From an uncultured Actinomycetes bacterium (GTDB lineage Bacteria; Actinomycetota; Actinomycetes; Streptosporangiales; Streptosporangiaceae), in the NCBI GenBank assembly GCA_963770375.1, contig CAVYPM010000008.1:93999-157998 (forward strand): 64,000 bases of DNA, written 5' to 3'. The notes beneath the pieces were generated by a model. The model worked only from the letters and a program-made list of their open reading frames with translations. It was not told where the DNA came from and did not search any database. The first letter of the stretch is position 1, and each line of letters begins with the position of its first letter. This document shows positions 2,535 to 39,712 of the stretch, piece by piece. The position numbers were made by a program, and so were the translations under genes.

Positions 2535-5093
<2,559 letters not shown>

Positions 5094-5574: not shown

Positions 5575-5907
5575 TCAGTGGGCGGCCTCGTACTCCTGGA
5601 TGATCGTGGCCGGGATACGCCCGCGCTCGCTTACCTTGTGACCCTTGTCGCGGGCCCAGGCGCGGATTTCCGCGCTGCGCTCGCGGCCCGGGCCGCTGCG
5701 GGCCCGGCGGCGGCGGGCGACGGAACCCGCACGGCGGGCATTGCCGGTGTACGCGCCGAACTTGTCGTGCAGTTCCTTGGCGTGTGCCGTGCACACGTCG
5801 ATCTCGTAGGCAGTTCCCTCAAAGGAGAACGAAACCGTCTCCTTACTCAGGACCTCGTCATCGTGCGGAAGGTCGCAGACGACAGTCGTTGTAATCTTCC
5901 GTGCCAT
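5575..5907 (-). CDS. lsr2: Nucleoid-associated protein Lsr2
   Basis: 110 aa. MARKITTTVVCDLPHDDEV...EIRAWARDKGHKVSERGRIPATIIQEYEAAH matches the Lsr2 N-terminal dimerisation and C-terminal AT-hook-like DNA-binding domains. AT-rich upstream region. Confidence 0.9.
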   Translation of the reverse strand: MARKITTTVVCDLPHDDEVLSKETVSFSFEGTAYEIDVCTAHAKELHDKFGAYTGNARRAGSVARRRRARSGPGRERSAEIRAWARDKGHKVSERGRIPATIIQEYEAAH

Positions 5908-6517
5908 GGGTCCAGCCCTTCCGCTACAGCCAGCTTATTAAGGTTTGCCAAACATATACCAGGACCGTTGCGTTTGACAATTGCGACGGCGATGATTGTG
6001 CTAGCTAGTTGCCCCGAACAGGCGAATGACGGCATTCCGGAAGGCCCACGTAACTCTCCGTAATCAGCGCCGCTTAGTGCCCCACAATGCTGATGCACGG
6101 CTGCGATGCAAGGCTGACTAGCGGCTACTGGCGAGGCGCGGAACCGCGCTCAGTGGTTTCCGCATGCCCTTCCTTGGGAGTTTCGCCAGCACTGCCTGTG
6201 ACAGTGCCATCGATTGCAGTATCGCCGATCCCGGCGGCGCCGCGATTCGGCTCGGCCGCGTCGTCCTCGTCGCCGCCGCGGCGCGAGCCCATCTCGTGGC
6301 GCAGGAACGCGCCCACCGCGACCAGCACCGCGACGCAGATCACGGCCGGCGGGATCAGTGCCGCCAGGTCTGCGTTCACGGCCCGCCTCCCGTCTGCGAC
6401 TCACTGAATACCGGCTGGCCGCGGGCCTGGCGCCGGGCAACTGCGGCTACCGGCTCGCACTGGCATTGTCACTCATCGCAGTGGCGGCCGCGGCACCGGG
6501 TCCGGCCTGGCCGGCCG

Positions 6518-9500
6518 ATGCGGGCGCCACTGACAGCACGCCGTGGCACTATCGGACCGCCCCCTCCGCGCGCCGCCGTCCCAGGAAGCAGGCCCTGTTC
6601 GTTGTTCCGTGCCGACCTGCACATCCACTCCCGGTTCTCCCGTGCGTGCAGTAAGAACTGCGACCTCGAGCATCTCGCCTGGTGGGCCCGGCGCAAAGGA
6701 ATCACAGTGGTCGGGACCGGGGATTTCACCCACCCGGCGTGGACCGAGGAACTCGCCGATTCCCTAATTCCCGCCGAGCCAGGCCTTTTCCGGCTGCGCG
6801 GCCCACTCGAAGATCAGCTGCGCCGGACCTCGCCGCCGAGCTGCACCGGTGAGGTCCGATTCATGCTGTCGTCGGAGATCTCCACGATCTACCGGCGCGG
6901 CGATCGGACCAGGAAAGTTCACCATCTGCTCTACGCACCGGACTTCGCCGCGGCAGGCCGGATCACCGCTGCGCTATCGAAGATCGGCAATCTGGCGTCC
7001 GACGGCCGGCCGATCCTTGGGCTCGACTCGCGCGATCTGCTGGAGATCGTTCTGGATAGCGGCCCGGGCAGCTATCTTGTCCCGGCGCACGTTTGGACGC
7101 CCTGGTTCGCGGTCCTTGGCTCCAAATCCGGCTTCGATCTGGTCGCGGACTGCTACGGCGATCTTGCCAGCGAGATATTCGCGATCGAGACCGGCCTGTC
7201 GTCGGACCCGGCGATGAACTGGCGCTGCTCAGTGCTGGATGGCTACCGGCTGGTGAGCAACTCCGATGCGCATTCCCCGCCGATGCTGGGGCGCGAGGCC
7301 ACTACGTTCGGTACAGCGCTTGATTACTTCGCGATGGCCGATGGACTGCGCACCGGCAACGGCCTGATTGGCACCATCGAGTTCTTTCCCGAAGAGGGCA
7401 AGTACCACCTGGATGGGCACCGGAAGTGCGGTGTACGGCTGGAGCCCGGCCAGACCAGGAAACAGGGCGGGGACTGCCCGCGGTGCGGGCGGCCGCTGAC
7501 CGTCGGCGTGCTGAACCGGGTGACCGAGCTGGCCGACCGGCCCGAGGGCTACCGGCCGGACGGCGCGCCGGAGGCCGTCAACCTGGTCTCGCTGCCGCAG
7601 ATCGTCGGCGAGGTGCTGGCTGCCGGGCCGCAGAGCAAGAAGGTCACCACGGAGGTCACCCGGCTGGTCGCGGCGCTCGGCCCGGAGCTCGACCTGCTGA
7701 CCGTGGTGCCGCCCGGCGAGCTGAGCCGGGTGGCCGGCAGCACCGTGGCCGAGGCCATCGCCCGGCTGCGGCGCGGCGAGGTGCAGCGGACCGGCGGCTT
7801 CGACGGCGAGTACGGCACGGTCCGGCTGTTCGGGCCCGGCGAGCTGACCGCGGCGGGGGCTCTTTTCGACGTTCCCGCGACCAGGAGCGCCCCGCCCGGC
7901 CAGGACGGCCAGGACGGCCAGATCCCGGAGACGGATCCGGGCCACGGGGCCAGCGGGCCGGATCCGGACGGCCGGCGCCGGGCCACGGGCACCGGCCCGC
8001 CCGCCGGCCCCCGCACGGGCCAGGAAACGGCACTCGACCCCGATCAGCTCGCCGCGGTCCAGGCGGCCAGCCCGCTGATGATCATCGCGGGGCCCGGTAC
8101 CGGCAAGACCCGCACGCTGGCGTACCGGATCGCCAGGCAGATCGCTGACGGGCTCCCGGCGCAGCGCTGCCTGGCGGTGACGTTCACCCGGCGGGCGGCC
8201 GGCGAACTTCGCGCCCGTCTGGACAGCCTTGTCCCGGGCTCCGCGGGACAACCATGCGTATCCAATTTTCATGGGCTAGGGCTGCAGCTGCTGCGTGAGT
8301 ATCCGGAGCGAGCGGGGCTGACACCAGAATTTTCCGTGGCTGACGAGGCCGCGGTAGCGGAGGTGGCCGCCGGGCTGGCCGGGTCGGCGCGGGCCGGGCG
8401 GCGGCTGCTGGCCGAGGCGGCCACGGACCCGGACCGCCGTGCGGAGCTGACGGCCGCACTGCGGGCCAGGGATCTGGTCGACTTCGACGGGCTGATCGAG
8501 CTGGCCGCCGGGCTGCTGCGCGGCGACCCCGGCCTGGCCGCGCGGATGCGCGAGCGCTGGCCGCGGATCAGCGTGGACGAGTACCAGGACATCGACGCGG
8601 CGCAGTACGAGCTGCTGGCCCTGCTGGCCGGGGACGGCACCGGGCTGACCGTGATCGGCGACCCGGACCAGGCCATCTACGGGTTCCGCGGCGCGGACGT
8701 CGGGTTCTTCCTGCGCTTCGGCGAGGACTACCCGGGGGCCACCACCTGCCAGCTGACCAGGAACTACCGGGCCACCGCGGCGATCGTGGCGGGCGCAACG
8801 GCGGTCATCGCCCCGGCCACGCTGGCCCCAGGACGGCTCCTGCACGCGGTCAACGGCGGCGGCGCGCCGATCACCCTCCACGAGGCCGCCGACGAGGCCG
8901 CGGAGGCGGCCTGGATAGCGGCGTCGGTCGACCGGCTGCTCGGCGGGGTGTCGCTGCACTCGATCGACAGCGGGCGGGCCGACGGGCACGCGGTGGATGG
9001 GGTCAGCCTGCGCGACGTGGCCGTGCTGTACCGCACCGACGGCCAGGCGGCCGCGCTCGGCCAGGCGCTGGGACGGGCCGGGCTGCCGTACCAGAAGGGC
9101 TCGCACGACCTTCTGGCCCGCCGGACCGGCGTCGCTGACCTGGTCGCCGAACTGCGCCGCGCCGCCACCGACCCGGCCGCTCCCGCCGACCCGGCCGCTC
9201 CCGCCGGCCCGGCTGATCCGGACGTGGCGGAGCGGCTGCGGGCGGCGGCCCGGCGGCTGACCGCGGGTGCCAGCCCGGGGCGGGCCACGGACCTGCGCTC
9301 GGCGGCCGCGGCGCTGTCGCCGCTGGCCCGCCGGTGCGGCGGCGACCTGACCGCTTTCCTGGCCGAGATCGCTCTCGGCGCCCAGGCCGACGCGCTGGAC
9401 CCGCGGGCCGACGCGGTCACCCTCCTGACCCTGCACGCGGCCAAGGGCCTGGAGTTCGACGTGGTGTTCCTGGCCGGCTGCGAGCGTGGCCTGCTCCCGC

Positions 9501-9745
9501 TGTGGCTCCCCGGCCAGGACCCCACCGCCGAAACCGCTGAGGAGCGGCGCCTGCTGTTCGTCGGGATGACCAGGGCGCGGTCCCGGCTGTACCTGAGCTA
9601 CGCCGCCCAGCGGGCCCGCCGCGGCGCGATCGCCGGGGGCGGCGGCCTGTCACCGTTCCTGGCCGGCATCAGCCCGGACCTCCTGCGCCGCCCGCAGGCC
9701 CCGCGGCCCCGGCGCCCTGACGCACAGCAACTGCGGCTGCTCTAG
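6518..9745 (+). CDS. Fusion protein: COG1379/TIGR00375-type PHP phosphoesterase with Zn-ribbon, joined to a UvrD/REP-family SF1 DNA helicase
   Basis: N-terminal DLHIHSRFS...TGDFTHPAW...CPRCGRPLTVGVLNRVTELAD (PHP plus Zn ribbon). C-terminal helicase motifs are complete: I AGPGTGKT, II DEYQD, III GDPDQAIYGFRGA, IV LTRNYR, V/VI TLHAAKGLEFDVVFL / FVGMTRARSRLYLS. The ORF opens at 6164, but the first ~120 codons are Arg-rich antisense overlap; the likely start is ATG 6518 or TTG 6602 (AGGAAG 12 nt upstream). Confidence 0.75.
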   Translation: MRAPLTARRGTIGPPPPRAAVPGSRPCSLFRADLHIHSRFSRACSKNCDLEHLAWWARRKGITVVGTGDFTHPAWTEELADSLIPAEPGLFRLRGPLEDQLRRTSPPSCTGEVRFMLSSEISTIYRRGDRTRKVHHLLYAPDFAAAGRITAALSKIGNLASDGRPILGLDSRDLLEIVLDSGPGSYLVPAHVWTPWFAVLGSKSGFDLVADCYGDLASEIFAIETGLSSDPAMNWRCSVLDGYRLVSNSDAHSPPMLGREATTFGTALDYFAMADGLRTGNGLIGTIEFFPEEGKYHLDGHRKCGVRLEPGQTRKQGGDCPRCGRPLTVGVLNRVTELADRPEGYRPDGAPEAVNLVSLPQIVGEVLAAGPQSKKVTTEVTRLVAALGPELDLLTVVPPGELSRVAGSTVAEAIARLRRGEVQRTGGFDGEYGTVRLFGPGELTAAGALFDVPATRSAPPGQDGQDGQIPETDPGHGASGPDPDGRRRATGTGPPAGPRTGQETALDPDQLAAVQAASPLMIIAGPGTGKTRTLAYRIARQIADGLPAQRCLAVTFTRRAAGELRARLDSLVPGSAGQPCVSNFHGLGLQLLREYPERAGLTPEFSVADEAAVAEVAAGLAGSARAGRRLLAEAATDPDRRAELTAALRARDLVDFDGLIELAAGLLRGDPGLAARMRERWPRISVDEYQDIDAAQYELLALLAGDGTGLTVIGDPDQAIYGFRGADVGFFLRFGEDYPGATTCQLTRNYRATAAIVAGATAVIAPATLAPGRLLHAVNGGGAPITLHEAADEAAEAAWIAASVDRLLGGVSLHSIDSGRADGHAVDGVSLRDVAVLYRTDGQAAALGQALGRAGLPYQKGSHDLLARRTGVADLVAELRRAATDPAAPADPAAPAGPADPDVAERLRAAARRLTAGASPGRATDLRSAAAALSPLARRCGGDLTAFLAEIALGAQADALDPRADAVTLLTLHAAKGLEFDVVFLAGCERGLLPLWLPGQDPTAETAEERRLLFVGMTRARSRLYLSYAAQRARRGAIAGGGGLSPFLAGISPDLLRRPQAPRPRRPDAQQLRLL

Positions 9746-10124
9746 CGCCCCGCGCCCGCCCCCGGAGCCCGGCCGGCGGCCCGCCCGGCAACCGCCGGGA
9801 ACGCCTGCCGGCATTGGCCTGCAGGGCCGCTGTGCTGCCCAAATGCACCCCGCCTCAACGCAGTGTCACTAATTAGCTACGCGTTGCTGGAAAGCGCCGC
9901 CGGCCTCACGCTGCGCACATCACGCGCAGATCACACCGGCCACCGCACCCCTCTTGACCTGCGGTGCGGCGGATTTACGACGCGCCGCCGCGAGCTGCAG
10001 AAATAGGCTCCCGTCCCGTCGGTTACGCTCCGCAGCCAGACGCGCCGACGTAAAAATTTCTGTCGTTCTCATTCGCGGTAGGCCTCCGTTCCATTAATCT
10101 CCAACGCTGTTAACCCCTGTTGCC

Positions 10125-10310
10125 GGCTGCCCCCTGAGACAGGCCGGTGACACCCGCCGAGTTCCTGGTGTGTGCTCGCATGCACCGGGGAGCCGGGGAC
10201 CCACCGTTCCCCGGGGTGAATCGGCTGGCTCCGGCCCTGCCCCAGGGCCGTACCAGCCGTAGGGCTCCTCCAGCCCGAACCCGTCAGCTAACCCGGTAGG
10301 CGGCCGAGGA
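10125..10310 (+). promoter_or_regulatory. ydaO/kimA-class c-di-AMP riboswitch in the 5' leader of the NlpC/P60 gene
   Basis: CCGGGGUGAAUCGG (compare GGGGUUAAUC) and CCCGUCAGCUAACCCGGUAGGCGG (compare CCCGACAGCUAACUCCGGAGGC) match the crystallised T. tengcongensis c-di-AMP riboswitch. The element ends at the RBS GGAGGAGAGGAGCAGC just before the start codon. 5' boundary is approximate. Confidence 0.7.
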
Positions 10311-10322
10311 GAGGAGCAGCAC

Positions 10323-11384
10323 GTGGAGCGCTTGCCCATCGGCAGGCAGTTCGCAGGCAGTTCACGGGGGAAACGCACCCGTGCCAGGTTTCACCGGGCA
10401 TGGGCCCGGACCGGTTTGGTCACCGGGACGGTTCTGCTGGCCGGGTTCGCCCTGCCAGCCAGCCTGAGCGTCGGCGCCCAGGCGACCACGGCGTCACCAG
10501 TGCCGCCCAGCATGAAGGCGCTCCTGGCCAAGGCCAACAAGGTGGCCCGCCAGGTCGAGGTGCTCAGCAACCAGTACGACGCGCTGAAGATTCAGCTTCA
10601 GGAAGCCAGGACCGAGGCCACGCTGGCCCGCAAGGCCGCCGAGCGCGACGCCAAGCAGCTGACCCAAGGCCAGCTCGCGGTCGGCCAGATCGCCGCCCAG
10701 GGCTACATGACCGGCAGCTTCGACCCGACCCTGCAGCTGCTGCAGAGCAGCGACCCGCAGGGGTTCGTCAACCGGGTCTCGATCATGCTGCAGCTGCAGC
10801 ACGAGAACGGCGACCGGGTCACCGCCGCGACCACCGCGAAGAACGCCGCCGAGCGCGCCGTGCTGACCGCGCAGCAGGAGGAGGCCAAGGCCACCCGGCT
10901 GTCCGCGGCGATGAAGAAGAAGGTCGCCGAGATCCAGGCCAAAGAGAACGTGCTGAACAGCGCGGCCTACAAGAAGGCCGCGGAGATCTTCCAGCAGACC
11001 GGCTCGTACCCCAACGTGCCGACCCCGGAAGGCAACTCGATCGGGGTCCAGGCGCTGCGCTGGGCGCTCAGCCGCCGCGGTGACGCCTACGTATGGGGCG
11101 CCGCCGGCCCGACCACGTTCGACTGCTCGGGCCTGGTCATGTGGGCCTACGCGCACGTGGGGATCAGCCTGGCGCACCTGACCTTCGACCAGTGGAACGA
11201 GGGCGAGCACGTCCCCAGCGCCCAGGCCCAGCCCGGCGACCTGATCTTCCTCTACGGTCTCGAGCACGTCGGCTTGTACATCGGCAACGGGCTGTTCATC
11301 GATGCGCCGTTCACCGGCACGGTCGTGCGGATCGACCCGGTCCCCTGGGGCTCGGTCGACGGCGTGGTCCGCATCATCGGCTGA
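10323..11384 (+). CDS. Secreted NlpC/P60 peptidoglycan endopeptidase with N-terminal coiled coil (RipA-like)
   Basis: Signal peptide, long coiled-coil segment, and a C-terminal NlpC/P60 core with catalytic Cys (FDCSGLVMWAY) and His (HVGLYIGNG). Confidence 0.8.
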   Translation: MERLPIGRQFAGSSRGKRTRARFHRAWARTGLVTGTVLLAGFALPASLSVGAQATTASPVPPSMKALLAKANKVARQVEVLSNQYDALKIQLQEARTEATLARKAAERDAKQLTQGQLAVGQIAAQGYMTGSFDPTLQLLQSSDPQGFVNRVSIMLQLQHENGDRVTAATTAKNAAERAVLTAQQEEAKATRLSAAMKKKVAEIQAKENVLNSAAYKKAAEIFQQTGSYPNVPTPEGNSIGVQALRWALSRRGDAYVWGAAGPTTFDCSGLVMWAYAHVGISLAHLTFDQWNEGEHVPSAQAQPGDLIFLYGLEHVGLYIGNGLFIDAPFTGTVVRIDPVPWGSVDGVVRIIG

Positions 11385-11464: not shown

Positions 11465-12991
11465 CTACTCCGGCCGCACCAGCGGGAACAGGATCGTCTC
11501 CCGGATGCTCGACCCGGTCAGCATGATCAGCAGCCGGTCCAGCCCCATGCCCATGCCCCCGGTCGGCGGCATGCCGTACTCCAGCGCCCGCAGGAAGTCC
11601 TCGTCCAGCTGCATCGCCTCGGCGTCGCCGCCCGCGGCGAGCAGCGACTGGGCGGTCAGCCGGGCCCGCTCCTCGTCCGGGTCGACCAGTTCGGTGTACG
11701 CGGTCGCGATCTCGGTCCCGAACGCCACCAGGTCCCACTTCTCGGCCAGCCGCGGGTCGTCCCGGTGCGCCCGGGTCAGCGGCGCCACCTCGACCGGGAA
11801 GTCGCAGTAGAACGTCGGCTCCACGGTCTTGCTCTCCACCAGGTGCTCGTACATCTCCAGCAGCACCTGGCCGCGGTTCCACTTCGGGTCCAGGCCGATC
11901 TCCGCGCGGGCGGCCAGCTTGCGCAGCTCGTCCTCGGTGGTGTCCGGGGTGACCTCCTCGCCGAGCGCGGCGGACACCGAGCCGTGCACGGTACGGAACG
12001 GCCACTCACCGCCGATGTCGTACTCGCCGCCGTCGGCCCGGCGGATGACCGTGCCGCCGAAACCGGCCACCGCGGCCGCCTGGATCAGCTCCCTGGTCAG
12101 CGTCGCCATCGTGGTGTAGTCGCCGTACGCCTGGTACAGCTCGAGCATGGTGAACTCGGGGTTGTGCGTGGCGTCGGCGCCCTCGTTGCGGAAGATCCGG
12201 CCGAGCTCGTAGACCTTCTCGATGCCGCCCACGACCAGCCGCTTGAGGTAGAGCTCCAGCGCGATCCGCAGGTACATGGTCAGGTCGCCGTAGGCGTTGA
12301 TGCGGGTGACGAACGGGCGCGCGTTGGCCCCGCCGTGCAGAACCTGCAGCACCGGGGTCTCGACCTCGAGGAACCCGCGCTCGTGCAGTTCCTCGCGAAT
12401 CGCCCTGGTCACCACGCCGCGCAGCTCGGCCATCTGCCGGGTCTGCGGGTTGACCAGCAGGTCCAGGTAGCGCTGCCGCATCCGGGTGGCCGGGTCGGAC
12501 AGGCCGGCGTGCTTCTCCGGCAGCGGCCGCAGCGCCTTGGCGGTGATCAGGAACGAGTCGGCCAGCACCGACAGCTCGCCCCGCCGGGAGGTGATGACCT
12601 CGCCCTCGACCCCGATGTGGTCGCCCAGGTCGACGTCCCGCTTCCAGGCCTCGAGCGCGTCCGCGCCGACCCGGTCCAGCGAGACCATCACCTGCAGGTC
12701 GCCGCTGCCGTCCCGGATCGTGGCGAAGCACAGCTTGCCGCCGGTGCGGTACAGCATGACCCGGCCGGCCACGGCGACCCGGTCGCCGGTGGCGGTGTCC
12801 GGGGCCAGGTCCTGGTAGCGCTCGCGAAGGTCCGCGATGACCGCGGTGCGCTCGAAGCCGGGCGGGTACGGGTCCTTCCCGGCCGCGCGCAGCGCGGCGG
12901 CCTTGGCCCGCCGCACCCGCATCTGCTCGGCAAGACCGCTGGCCGGGCCGGTTTCCCCGCCCGGAGCCGGCGCTGTTTCATCCGCTGTCAT
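11465..12991 (-). CDS. lysS: Lysyl-tRNA synthetase (class II)
   Basis: OB-fold anticodon-binding domain plus class II core with motifs 1-3 (FLEVETPVLQ, GIEKVYELGRIFRNEG, GGMGMGLDRLLI). ATG 12991 (MTADETAPA) is chosen because the ORF start at 13066 would overlap coaX. Confidence 0.9.
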   Translation of the reverse strand: MTADETAPAPGGETGPASGLAEQMRVRRAKAAALRAAGKDPYPPGFERTAVIADLRERYQDLAPDTATGDRVAVAGRVMLYRTGGKLCFATIRDGSGDLQVMVSLDRVGADALEAWKRDVDLGDHIGVEGEVITSRRGELSVLADSFLITAKALRPLPEKHAGLSDPATRMRQRYLDLLVNPQTRQMAELRGVVTRAIREELHERGFLEVETPVLQVLHGGANARPFVTRINAYGDLTMYLRIALELYLKRLVVGGIEKVYELGRIFRNEGADATHNPEFTMLELYQAYGDYTTMATLTRELIQAAAVAGFGGTVIRRADGGEYDIGGEWPFRTVHGSVSAALGEEVTPDTTEDELRKLAARAEIGLDPKWNRGQVLLEMYEHLVESKTVEPTFYCDFPVEVAPLTRAHRDDPRLAEKWDLVAFGTEIATAYTELVDPDEERARLTAQSLLAAGGDAEAMQLDEDFLRALEYGMPPTGGMGMGLDRLLIMLTGSSIRETILFPLVRPE

Positions 12992-13008
12992 TTGCCCGAG
13001 ATTACCGG

Positions 13009-13800
13009 TCAGCCCACGGCGGTGTTGCGCTCGAAGACCAGCCGCAGCCCGATCAGCGTCAGCCACGGCTCGTAGTGGTCGATCAGCGCGACCTCGTTGA
13101 TGACCAGCGGCGCCAGCCCGCCGGTGGCAATGATCGTGACCGAGTCCGGGTCCGCCGGGGCCAGCTCGGCGGCCATCCGCCGGGCGATCCCCTCGACCTG
13201 CCCGGCGAACCCGTAGATGATCCCGGACTGCAGCGACTCGACCGTGTTCTTGCCGATGACCCGGGCCGGGCGGGTCAGCTCCACCTTCAGCAGCTGCGCC
13301 GCCCGGCGCGACAGCGCGTCCACCGAGATCTCGATCCCCGGCGCCAGCGCCCCGCCGACGAACTCGCCCCTCGCGCTCACCGCGTCGAAGTTGGTCGAGG
13401 TGCCGAAATCAACCACCACGGCCGGCCCGCCGTACAGGTGCACCGCGGCCAGCGCGTTCATGATCCGGTCGCTGCCGACTTCCTTCGGGTTGTCGGTCCG
13501 GACCGGGACTCCGGTGCGCACGCCCGGCTCCACGATCACCGCTGGCACGTCGCCGTAGTAGCGGCGCACCATTTCCCGCATCTCGTGGAGGACGGACGGC
13601 ACGGTCGAGCACAGCGCGATGCCGGTCACGAACGGGTCAGCGTCCAGCGTGCTCTGCGCGAGCAGGCCCTGCAGGATCACCGCGTGCTCGTCGGCGGTCC
13701 GGTCCGCGGTGGTGGCCGTCCGCCAGTGCTCGACGACCTGGTCCCCGTCGAACAGGCACAGCACCGTGTTGGTGTTGCCCACGTCAATGGTCAGCAGCAC
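13009..13800 (-). CDS. coaX: Type III pantothenate kinase
   Basis: [17 protein letters not shown] (acetate/sugar-kinase fold N-terminus typical of CoaX); 263 aa; follows panC as in Rv3600c. Confidence 0.85.
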
Positions 13801-13846
13801 TGCTGGTCCCCTGTTTTAGGTATACGGGATTTGCGGCCCGGGCCAC

Positions 13847-14714
13847 TCAGCCCGGGCCGGTCTGCACCGGCACGTTGTCGATCAGCCGGGTCGCGCCCAC
13901 TTTCACCGCGGCCAGCAGCAGCGCGGCGCCGGCGTGATCCTCGCTCACCGGCTCGAACTGCTCCGGGTCGGCCAGCACCAGGTAGTCGGTGACCAGCGGC
14001 GGCCGGGCCGCCGGCCGCCTCGCCGAGCACCGCCCGTGCGGCCGCCAGCACCGCCGCCGGGCCGGCCTTGGCCTGCTCCTGGCCCGCGCGCAGCGCGGCG
14101 GGCAGGGCCCGCGCGGTGGCCCGCTCGGGCCCGGACAGGTAGGCGTTCCGGCTGGAGACGGCCAGCCCGTCCGGGTCCCTGGCGATGGGCACCGCCGCGA
14201 TCTGCACCGGCAGGCACAGGTCGGTGACCATCCGCCGGACCAGCGCCAGCTGCTGGGCGTCCTTCTCGCCGAACACCGCCGCGTCCGGCCGGGTCAGCTG
14301 GAGCAGCTTGAGCACCACGGTCAGCACGCCGGTGAAGAACCCGGGCCGGGACGCGCCCTCGAGCCGCTGCCCGGCCGGGCCCGGGTCCACCGTGATCTGC
14401 TGCGGCTCGGGGTACATCTGCGCCGGGTCCGGGGTGAACACCAGCGCCGCGCCCTCCTCCGCGCACACCGCCAGGTCGTCGGCCAGCGGCCGCGGGTAGC
14501 GGCCGAAGTCCTCGGCCGGGCCGAACTGGAGCGGGTTCACGAAGATCGACACCAGCACGCTGCCGTCCGGGCCGGCCGCCTCCCGGGCGCAGCGCAGCAG
14601 CGCCCGGTGCCCGTCGTGCAGCGCGCCCATGGTCGGCACGAGCACGACCGGTCCGGGCAGCCCGGCCCGGGCCGCGGCCAGTCCCGTCCGGGTCCTGGCC
14701 ACGATCGGGGTCAC
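13847..14714 (-). CDS. panC: Pantoate-beta-alanine ligase PanC carrying a single-nucleotide frameshift near 13995-14010
   Basis: N-terminal 240 aa ([13 protein letters not shown]...FGEKDAQQ...SSRN) are in the frame of ORF 13791-14714. The conserved C-terminus (...[19 protein letters not shown]...[11 protein letters not shown]) continues in the +1 frame and stops at 13847. The shift sits in the run ggcggcccggccgcc. Confidence 0.8.
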
Positions 14715-15616
14715 CGCGGCGCCCCGCCGAGCACGCCGAGCAGCCGCTGCGCGTCGGCCGGGTCCAGCGAGCCGGCCGCCAGCGCCCGGTCCGCGGTGAG
14801 CCGGGCCAGCGCCAGGTAGGCGGCCACGGTCTCCGGCGCGGCCCGCCGCAGCGCGTCCAGGTGCGCGGCCACGGTACTGGCGTCGCCCCTGGCCACCGGC
14901 CCGGTCAGCGCGCCGTCGCCGAGCCGCAGGGCGTTGTCCAGGGCCGCGAACAGCAGCGGGCTGAGCATCCGGCCGGGGTTCGCCACCCCGGCCCGGGCCA
15001 GCAGGTCCCGGCTCTGCGCGACGAGCGTGACCAGGTGGTTCGCCCCGCTGGCCAGGGCCGCGTGGTACAGATCGCGGTCCTCCTCGGCGATGAGCACCGG
15101 CTCGCCGCCCATCTCCATCACCAGCACCTCGGCGGCGGCCCGCAGCGGCTCGGGCGCGGTCACCCCGAAGCTGATCCCGGCCAGCTTGTCCAGGTCGTCC
15201 GCCCGCCCGGTAAACGTCATCACCGGGTGCAGCGCCAGCGGCAGCGCCCCGCGCCGGGTGGCGGGGTCAAGTACCGCCAGCCCGTGCCGGCCGCTGGCGT
15301 GCACCAGCAGCCGGCCCTCGACCGGGACCCCGGCCGTGACCAGCCCGCTGACCAGCGGCCCGAGCGCGTCGTCGGGCACGGTGAGCAGGGCGAGACTGGC
15401 CTCGGTGACGACCTGATCCGCCGGGCGCACCGGCACCCCGGGCAGCAGCCGCCCGGCCCGCGCTTTCGAGGTCTCAGACACCGCGGCCACCGCCACGACC
15501 TCGTGCCCGGCCCGGCGCAGCGCCGCGGCCAGGACGGTGCCGGCCCGGCCCGCGCCGATCAGCCCGACCCGCAGCCGGGCCGGGTGCGCGGCCTCGGGCT
15601 CCTCGTCAGGTGTCAT
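14711..15616 (-). CDS. Rossmann-fold NAD(P)-binding protein (DUF2520 / F420-oxidoreductase-like; Rv3603c-like)
   Basis: [26 protein letters not shown] is a dinucleotide-binding motif; 301 aa; position matches Rv3603c. Confidence 0.6.
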
Positions 15617-39635: not shown

Positions 39636-39712
39636 CGGGGTGTGGCGCAGCTTGGCAGCGCGCTTCGTTCGGGACGAAGAGGCCGCCGGTTCAAATCCGG
39701 CCACCCCGACCA
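39636..39712 (+). tRNA. tRNA-Pro (anticodon CGG), CCA encoded
   Basis: Acceptor CGGGGTG/CACCCCG, D-arm GGCGCAGCTTGGCAGCGCGC, anticodon stem-loop CTTCG-TTCGGGA-CGAAG, T-arm GCCGGTTCAAATCCGGC, then ACCA. Confidence 0.85.

Follow-up and report, generated by a model that had tools for sequence, protein, structure and literature searches.

Endonuclease Q (EndoQ), which was characterised in 2015, incises DNA at the phosphodiester bond 5' of a hypoxanthine, a uracil, a xanthine or an abasic (AP) site, leaving ends that can be ligated (PMC4357722). The described enzymes include PfuEndoQ of Pyrococcus furiosus (PF1551), TkoEndoQ (TK0887), and the EndoQ of Bacillus pumilus/subtilis, and the family corresponds to COG1379/TIGR00375/PF27218 (MJ0043_C). 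The P. abyssi orthologue, Pab0431, a partner of PCNA, has been assigned to COG1379 (PMC3820547). In archaeal EndoQ, the extreme C-terminus holds a PIP box, through which PCNA is bound with a KD of 55 nM, and the ring-shaped PCNA stimulates the enzyme 6-7 fold; standalone bacterial EndoQ homologues have been reported with C-terminal β-clamp motifs (PMC4858679). After incision, EndoQ remains on the nicked product, and it has been proposed to recruit downstream factors (PMC5961232). Publications on EndoQ up to 2024 place homologues only "in some bacteria" (PMC4357722, PMC8307549). Here we describe a bacterial gene in which an EndoQ homologue is fused to a UvrD/PcrA-type helicase that ends in a predicted β-clamp-binding peptide. 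The gene lies within a 64,000-nucleotide (nt) stretch of DNA from an uncultured actinomycete of the family Streptosporangiaceae (assembly GCA_963770375.1, contig CAVYPM010000008.1, positions 93,999 to 157,998 of the forward strand). This stretch is referred to below as the window, and all coordinates are given within it.

The complete coding sequence of the EndoQ-UvrD-like helicase fusion (6602..9745, + strand) starts with a TTG codon and specifies 1047 amino acids (aa) plus a stop, as judged from the open reading frame (ORF) and from the N-termini of homologues. The ORF that contains it, 6164..9745 on the + strand, is open throughout, and its translation holds the motifs DLHIHSRFS and TGDFTHPAW together with CPRCGRPLTVGVLNRVTEL. 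An initial annotation, made from the sequence, had proposed a single polypeptide consisting of a PHP/Zn-ribbon module and a full UvrD-like superfamily 1 (SF1) helicase. This architecture stands: the frame is uninterrupted, all the quoted motifs are found, and neither a stop nor a frameshift, either of which was to count against the proposal, is seen between the PHP and the helicase parts. The GC content at third codon positions (GC3) ranges from 0.78 to 1.0 along the whole frame, the linker between the two modules included (0.88-0.93). Locus L001, which is 98% identical, also keeps one ORF, as do ~68 of the ~72 related genomes that have enough sequence.

When the protein is searched against the sequences of the PDB, it matches P. 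furiosus EndoQ (5zb8 and 7k30-7k33; E 3e-41, 30% identity), with query residues 4-409 aligned to residues 5-382 of the 400-residue crystallised core. By this homology, the N-terminal ~410 aa is a full-length EndoQ, longer than the ~330 aa originally allotted to the module. An AlphaFold2 model of the protein (mean pLDDT 86.6) agrees with 5zb8 in a Foldseek comparison over ~400 residues and all three EndoQ domains, with a template modeling (TM) score of 0.88-0.89 and a root-mean-square deviation of 2.5 Å. The PHP catalytic domain (aa 1-262; 6602..7387, +) is delimited by the PfuEndoQ alignment, the Zn-binding domain (aa 263-329; 7388..7588, +) by alignment with Pfu C249/C252/C268/C271, and the helical C-terminal domain (aa 330-418; 7589..7855, +) by the PfuEndoQ alignment, which runs to Pfu residue 382, and by a pLDDT of ~90 or higher. 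The metal ligands of PfuEndoQ, which are H8, H10, E76, H84, H139 and D193 (PMC5961232), align with H7, H9, E92, H107, H163 and D222 of the fusion, and H224 aligns with Pfu H195. The Pfu pocket residues H139, G169 and S171, which keep out thymine and adenine (PMC8307549), align with H163, G198 and S200. The Zn ligands are H273, C276, C292 and C295 (HxxC...CxxC versus the archaeal C4), and a CPRCG sequence is present. Across an alignment of 53 homologues with 40-98% identity, the metal ligands, the pocket residues, the Zn ligands, D5, and H224 are all invariant.

Profile searches that had been suggested for the protein gave a mixed outcome. UvrD-helicase PF00580 and UvrD_C PF13361 matched, TIGR00375 matched below its cut-off, and the Pfam PHP model PF02811 gave no match to the protein even at E<=10 (only PHP_C, at 0.011). 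The assignment of the PHP fold relies not on PF02811 but on the crystal structure of EndoQ and on the TM of 0.89 obtained with the predicted model. The identity of the family also bears on two other statements in the initial annotation. COG1379/TIGR00375 had been treated as an orphan, but it is Endonuclease Q (PMC3820547, PMC4357722; structures 5zb8, 7k30), and the DNA-processing context that the fusion was expected to supply had already been assigned through the characterised enzyme.

A disordered Pro/Gly/Asp-rich linker (aa 419-474; 7856..8023, +; pLDDT <50 for residues 418-474) leads from the EndoQ module to a UvrD/PcrA-like SF1A helicase (aa 475-1036; 8024..9709, +), which is identified by Pfam, NCBIfam, a PDB search, invariant columns and Foldseek. 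In the C-terminal half of the protein, Pfam finds UvrD-helicase PF00580 (E 3e-54), UvrD_C PF13361 (4e-35) and AAA_19, while the best-scoring NCBIfam models are PcrA, UvrD and Rep. Relatives in the PDB are Deinococcus radiodurans UvrD (DrUvrD), Mycobacterium tuberculosis UvrD1, Escherichia coli UvrD, and PcrA, with ~30% identity and E values down to 1.7e-71; in Foldseek, the helicase matches UvrD (2is2/4c2t) with a TM of up to 0.73. Helicase motifs Q, I, Ia, II, III, IV, V and VI are all present, so that the earlier description of a C-terminal half containing every UvrD/Rep motif from I to VI is confirmed by the Pfam matches and the invariant columns. Among the 53 homologues, the invariant positions include Q482, Walker A at 496-503 (AGPGTGKT; GxGKT 499-503), DEYQD at 659-663 (DExQD), motif III at 686-697 (GDPDQAIYGFRGA; GDxxQ 686-690), R723 of motif IV, motif V at 943-952 (K948/G949), and R991 of motif VI.

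The helicase is nevertheless smaller than its relatives. Subdomain 2B is ~70 residues and 1B ~35 residues shorter than in DrUvrD. For 2B, the shortening follows from the alignment, in which DrUvrD residues 409-516 face just 38 query residues; for 1B, DrUvrD residues 131-175 are skipped against ~10 query residues. In the predicted model, 2B comprises ~100 aa. Since the protein stops ~50 residues past motif VI, it has no C-terminal Tudor/RNA polymerase-binding domain. Thus, the fusion helicase shares all motifs and the 1A/1B/2A/2B fold with UvrD, PcrA, Rep and UvrD1, but unlike them it is ~150 aa shorter, lacks the Tudor domain, and is covalently joined to a nuclease. Its sequence marks it as a compact motor of the SF1A type that is orthologous to none of PcrA, UvrD and Rep.

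The bacterial β-clamp-binding consensus is QL[S/D]LF, with variants such as QMSLL in MutS. The fusion protein terminates in ...RRPDAQQLRLL, and its C-terminal pentapeptide, QLRLL (aa 1043-1047; 9728..9742, +), matches this consensus and is a predicted β-sliding-clamp-binding motif. A basic, disordered tail precedes it; the last 11 residues are disordered in the model, and the pLDDT of the tail is <50. Within the last 10 aa, the pattern Q[LIVM]x[LIVMF][LIVMF] occurs in 232 of 273 full-length homologues (85%); for representatives of 50%-identity clusters the count is 107 of 146, and the background in internal 10-aa windows is 0.4%. Close relatives end in RQLRLL, and distant ones in QLSLF, QLDLF, QLELF or QMELF. 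The putative tail would therefore be the bacterial mirror image of the PCNA-binding tail of archaeal EndoQ, with the helicase situated between EndoQ core and tail. In summary of the comparison with EndoQ itself, the fusion resembles it in its three-domain homology, its metal ligands, the H/G/S pocket, the four-ligand Zn site and the C-terminal clamp-type peptide. It differs in the 570-aa SF1A helicase that is inserted between core and tail and in its host, which is bacterial, mesophilic and high-GC, whereas P. furiosus is a hyperthermophilic archaeon.

The fusion is widespread. A search with the full-length protein yields at least 8000 candidates and points to thousands of such proteins in the databases; it also recovers full-length proteins of 97% and 86% identity. 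Among the matches listed, 120 of 120 close homologues are fusions of 1009-1195 aa. At 50% identity there are at least 150 clusters, and the best 150 representatives are nearly all ~1000-1200 aa long, most of them aligning over both modules. A search for homologues with the EndoQ domain alone gave only proteins of <=740 aa. This outcome looks length-filtered, since the full-length proteins of 97% and 86% identity were missing from it, and it is not usable as evidence for split genes. The database names include "UvrD-helicase domain-containing protein" and "uncharacterized protein (TIGR00375 family)", and NCBI names members either 'endonuclease Q family protein' or 'UvrD-helicase domain-containing protein'. 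Close relatives are found in at least 275 species genomes, with hosts that include Streptosporangiaceae, Actinomadura, Actinoallomurus, Nocardiopsis, Thermobifida and Streptomonospora, as well as Frankia/Parafrankia/Protofrankia, Amycolatopsis, Glycomyces and Actinocatenispora. Divergent members are present in Chitinivibrionales (Fibrobacterota), in Desulfobotulus (Desulfobacterota), and in the obligate intracellular Rickettsiales bacterium Ca. Xenohaliotis californiensis.

The position of the gene is also conserved. The fusion gene adjoins lsr2-clpC in 46 of 80 loci, these 46 belonging without exception to Streptosporangiales and representing several genera; lysS-coaX follows it in 27. The description of this site as a "non-core slot" is at odds with the retention of the lsr2-clpC position in those 46 related genomes. 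When a conserved partner was sought in genomes without this synteny (Frankia, Amycolatopsis, Glycomyces and others), none emerged; the neighbours there include genes for a metallophosphoesterase, a family 2 glycosyltransferase (GT2), an amine oxidase, a family 94 glycoside hydrolase (GH94), a phosphoribosyltransferase and a methyltransferase. The EndoQ part has no match in 50,697 phage genomes. Among 72,556 plasmids it has a single match, a standalone EndoQ on a 733-kb Brevibacillus replicon, where the gene sits in a chromosomal-type nudF-endoQ-spoIIM arrangement. The EndoQ part is likewise absent from the IMG/VR matches listed, which cover the helicase part only. The context of the fusion gene is chromosomal and non-mobile.

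In a few related loci the gene appears to be split. In L006, L008, L018, L079, L081 and L164, which come from assemblies of metagenome-assembled genomes, the helicase lies in another frame or the frames are broken, and these apparent splits are probable assembly frameshifts. In L081 (6473-8007) and L164 (5404-7496), ~1.5 kb of broken frames separates the EndoQ and helicase parts; these probably reflect assembly indels in the GC-rich linker/helicase region, or possibly pseudogenes. At L163 (4001-6972), on a JGI metagenome contig, an EndoQ ORF of 449 aa and a helicase ORF of 541 aa overlap at ATGA. The latter carries the clamp motif, ending in DRQLRLL, and the pair is flanked by VMAP-M2 and AAA_16 genes, not by lsr2. 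Judged from its sequence, L163 may be a true split operon of two genes, or it may reflect a frameshift.

Translation of the fusion almost certainly starts at TTG 6602 rather than at ATG 6518, the start first considered. This assignment rests on three kinds of evidence: the N-termini of homologues, in-frame upstream stops, and the match of alignment columns. Homologues start 1-2 residues ahead of a conserved F-x-A-D-L-H-I-H sequence, and the representatives of the 50%-identity clusters align from their own residue 3 onto query residue 2. In several loci an in-frame stop lies 6-8 codons upstream of F-x-A-D-L-H-I-H. Furthermore, TTG 6602 occupies the same alignment column as the ATG start of the sister loci L002-L006; ATG 6518 is conserved in L001 only and lies upstream of a conserved promoter-like block. 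The long 5' extension of the ORF from 6164 is judged spurious because it overlaps, in antisense, a conserved ORF of 84 aa (6125-6379, - strand). This small ORF, which lies between lsr2 and the fusion gene, encodes a hydrophobic membrane-type segment, has no Pfam match, and has counterparts of 50-93% identity in L001-L005 and L008, the nearest Streptosporangiaceae loci. As a separate observation on composition, GC3 within 6602-9745 steps from ~0.80 over the PHP domain (6602 to ~7480) to ~0.95 from the Zn domain onward. This gradient is shared with L001, L004, L010 and L012; it is not present in Thermobifida, Glycomyces or Amycolatopsis.

Of the functions considered for the fusion, that of a DNA-repair enzyme, which was among those raised in the initial annotation, is the most plausible. 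We consider it probable, with considerable room for doubt, that the protein is a clamp-tethered, nick-and-unwind enzyme for the repair of deaminated bases and abasic sites. Its parts, as read from the sequence and the predicted model, would be an intact EndoQ module, a disordered linker of ~55 aa, a UvrD/PcrA-type SF1A motor of compact size, and the predicted C-terminal β-clamp peptide. In such a reaction, the β clamp would recruit the protein to DNA or tether it there. The EndoQ module would then flip out a uracil, hypoxanthine or xanthine, or engage an abasic site, and, to judge by the conserved residues, would incise immediately 5' of the lesion, creating a 3'-OH and a lesion-bearing end with a 5'-phosphate; this incision chemistry has been demonstrated only for archaeal and Bacillus EndoQ. 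At the nick, the fused motor, of presumed 3'->5' polarity, could use ATP to displace the strand that carries the lesion and/or free the tightly product-bound nuclease. If the motor peels the strand that carries the lesion at its 5' end, a 3'->5' polarity would require it to track along the intact strand. A clamp-bound polymerase would resynthesise DNA from the 3'-OH, and a 5' nuclease would clear the resulting flap.

The proposed reaction has parallels in mismatch repair (MMR) and nucleotide excision repair (NER), in which contacts with the clamp have been reported to help target repair proteins. As with MutH/MutL plus UvrD and UvrABC plus UvrD, a damage-directed nick would be followed by a UvrD-type motor that displaces a strand or turns over the incision complex. 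Unlike in MMR and NER, nuclease and motor form one polypeptide, a base-flipping endonuclease would nick directly at the lesion, and separate recognition proteins would play no part. Since EndoQ is retained on its product and UvrD motors act at nicks in MMR and NER, displacement and/or release is the most economical model for the motor. Another parallel is NucS/EndoMS, an archaeal-type, clamp-binding repair endonuclease that serves actinobacteria in place of a canonical bacterial pathway. The fusion likewise would be an archaeal-type repair endonuclease with predicted clamp binding in actinobacteria; unlike the fusion, NucS has a PD-(D/E)xK fold, cuts both strands at mismatches, and is without a helicase. 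A more ambitious version, which we offer tentatively and regard as rather less than an even bet, is a self-contained, clamp-tethered "incise-and-unwind" excision pathway. Here EndoQ incision would be mechanically coupled to strand displacement by the 2B-reduced UvrD motor, with the clamp recruiting the enzyme and perhaps giving information on strand or orientation.

The region upstream of the gene contains a hint about its regulation. The most conserved non-coding block of the upstream alignment is a promoter-like sequence, TGACAG-N10-CACTAT (6531-6552, +), located ~50 nt upstream of the start. In the sister loci L002-L006, this block reads TGTCGG or TGTCAG-N10-CAGTAT, which fits the PafBC consensus. 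That consensus, tGTCgg(N10)tA(N3)T, belongs to the LexA-independent DNA-damage response of actinobacteria (PMC8635444). The putative DNA-damage promoter motif in the sister loci is a hint at regulation and is taken as that only. Many other clades keep only an extended -10 element (TGnCAnGAT), often positioned 6-9 nt from the start codon, a spacing that suggests leaderless mRNAs. A scan of 6300-10400 for σ70-type promoters and intrinsic terminators yielded nothing above shuffled expectation.

Several observations weigh against the repair-enzyme interpretation or limit how far it can be taken. In the window and in L001, the strictly conserved GTC of the PafBC motif is GAC, so that PafBC control of the window copy is doubtful, and the window contains no LexA/SOS box within 2 mismatches. 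The TIGR00375 match (E 1e-38, 133.6 bits) lies below the 326.6-bit equivalog cut-off, and the NCBIfam helicase scores are similarly low (311.8 bits for PcrA, versus cut-offs of 911-1168). Because neither the TIGR00375 nor the PcrA/UvrD/Rep cut-offs are reached, the fusion represents a divergent subfamily whose substrate range could differ. At the first Zn ligand, the fusion has His and archaeal EndoQ has Cys. With a pTM of 0.57, the model predicts no contact between the EndoQ and helicase modules, nor is it informative about such contacts. Given this and the disordered linker, the argument for a physical coupling of nicking and unwinding is the fusion itself. The function proposed for the fusion as a whole is drawn from sequence and a predicted model, and the direction of unwinding relative to the lesion is not derivable from sequence. 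Finally, full-text literature searches found no paper on an EndoQ-helicase fusion.

The PHP domains of Pol III α and PolX have exonuclease- or phosphatase-type activities, and the initial annotation suggested 3'-5' exonuclease or phosphatase activity for the fusion as well. A PHP module with such a chemistry would clean up blocked 3' ends that the helicase exposes. Activities of this kind have also been discussed for Pab0431 (PMC3820547), and exonuclease activity appears among the keywords of a 2024 kinetic study of PfuEndoQ. However, the module keeps the three-domain EndoQ architecture, including the Zn and helical domains that clamp the duplex, as well as the H163/G198/S200 pocket that selects uracil and hypoxanthine, while the generic PHP model has no match. 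A 5' incision of the EndoQ type is the likelier chemistry, and we regard end cleaning as very improbable. The motor, in turn, could have a role other than displacing DNA. It might be an ATP-driven translocase that scans for lesions, or it might strip EndoQ from its product for turnover, leaving lesion removal to nick translation by Pol I. Such a role would accord with the persistence of EndoQ on nicked DNA (PMC5961232), the ability of the archaeal enzyme to cut single-stranded (ss) DNA as well (PMC4357722), the reduced 1B, and the much shortened 2B, which regulates helicase activity in the UvrD family. Mycobacterial UvrD1 reportedly works in NER as a monomeric ATPase, its helicase activity being dispensable (PMC13646824). 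Yet deletion of 2B in UvrD1 reportedly unmasks, rather than abolishes, helicase activity, and in the fusion all helicase motifs are invariant, the ssDNA-coupling ones included. A purely scanning or turnover motor is thus best described as unlikely, though not negligibly so.

The remaining explanations place the protein outside lesion repair. As a stand-alone defence module against phages or plasmids, it would cut invading DNA that contains uracil, hypoxanthine or otherwise non-canonical bases and then unwind or degrade it. Nuclease-helicase fusions are common among defence systems, Bacillus EndoQ has been proposed in a review to act against viruses (PMC8307549), and the split locus L163 adjoins VMAP-M2 and AAA_16 genes. 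The helicase half also matches the PADLOC models for GajB (Gabija) and the DRT helicase with E ~1e-66, but the GajB score (~222 bits) is below that for PcrA (312 bits) and thus indicates generic UvrD similarity, and the EndoQ half is without any PADLOC match. No GajA-like or other partner and no defence island is present, the neighbours are unrelated metabolic genes, and the gene has a syntenic core position across several Streptosporangiales genera. The scarcity of mobile copies (phages 0, plasmids 1, none among the IMG/VR matches listed), the conserved predicted replication-clamp motif, and the occurrence in an obligate intracellular Rickettsiales bacterium argue in the same direction. The defence proposal finds no support in these data, and we consider it highly unlikely. 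Least probable of all, and close to negligible, is a role in processing the ends of double-strand breaks in the manner of AdnAB/AddAB/RecBCD. A nuclease and a UvrD-like motor do occur together in the single polypeptide of the fusion, and there are weak sequence and fold matches to the motors of RecB, AddA and AdnB. These matches, however, are confined to the SF1 motor; Pfam and NCBIfam searches of the protein reveal no PD-(D/E)xK RecB nuclease domain; the nuclease is N-terminal, belongs to a family of lesion-specific nicking enzymes and keeps its base-recognition pocket intact; and the locus contains no gene for a partner subunit. We know of no counterpart of the clamp-binding tail in end resectors. 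The analogy with AdnAB/RecB that had been drawn is therefore superficial, given that EndoQ is a lesion-specific nicking enzyme and not an end resector. What AddA/RecB/AdnAB and GajB do share with the fusion is the coupling of a UvrD-like SF1 motor with a nuclease; unlike in the fusion, their nucleases are of the RecB family or the TOPRIM/OLD type, and they work on DNA ends or in defence and depend on partner subunits.

The genes around the fusion agree with the placement given in the initial annotation, between lsr2 and lysS and beside a cyclic di-AMP (c-di-AMP) riboswitch and an NlpC/P60 gene. In the window gene map, lsr2 (5575-5907, -) and clpC (2535-5093, -) lie on one side of the fusion. 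On the other side are a c-di-AMP (ydaO/yuaA) riboswitch (10145-10318, +; 70.5 bits, E 8e-15) and, directly downstream of it, an ORF with a C-terminal NlpC/P60 domain (10323-11384, +). Only 5 nt separate the end of the riboswitch from the earliest start codon available to this ORF, so that the NlpC/P60 gene probably begins further downstream. The NlpC/P60 stretch is compositionally odd: its AT skew is strongly positive (~+0.18), and a 227-aa ORF (10400-11083) overlaps it in a different frame. Next come lysS (11465-13066, -) and, after it, coaX (type III pantothenate kinase), panC and a Rossmann-like/DUF2520 gene (13009-15616, -). This gene order presumably resembles that of the mycobacterial clpC1-lsr2-lysS-...-panC region; relative to what we take to be the mycobacterial order, the EndoQ-helicase gene and the riboswitch-NlpC/P60 unit are inserted in this lineage. 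A gene for a MutY/Nth-like HhH-GPD base-excision glycosylase (1571-2440, +; HhH-GPD 6e-13, HHH 3e-08) is found just past clpC, and thus the neighbourhood contains a second DNA-repair gene. L081 has a member of the HhH-GPD family at the corresponding position. In the window, the HhH-GPD gene is overlapped by long antisense ORFs (for example 389-2191, -), which have no family matches. The one tRNA gene of the 64-kb window is tRNA-Pro(CGG) (39636-39712, +), and Rfam gives no match besides it and the riboswitch.

The fusion architecture is already visible in database annotations. What is added here is the recognition, from sequence comparison, of a large, conserved bacterial fusion subfamily and of its predicted clamp-binding tail. 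EndoQ has been described as mainly archaeal, and the steps that follow its 5' incision are unclear; the fusion makes this follow-up testable. As a "Rosetta stone", it nominates, in a single polypeptide, a helicase step and clamp tethering downstream of EndoQ. A naturally 2B-reduced SF1A motor is also relevant to work on the gating of UvrD-family helicases by 2B. For actinobacteria, the protein represents a candidate route for deamination repair, and their GC-rich genomes may be expected to be especially exposed to cytosine deamination. If the incise-and-unwind pathway exists, it would answer the question of what follows the EndoQ nick, and high-GC actinobacteria, which lack MutS/MutL, would gain a replication-coupled means of removing uracil and hypoxanthine that bypasses glycosylase-initiated base excision repair.

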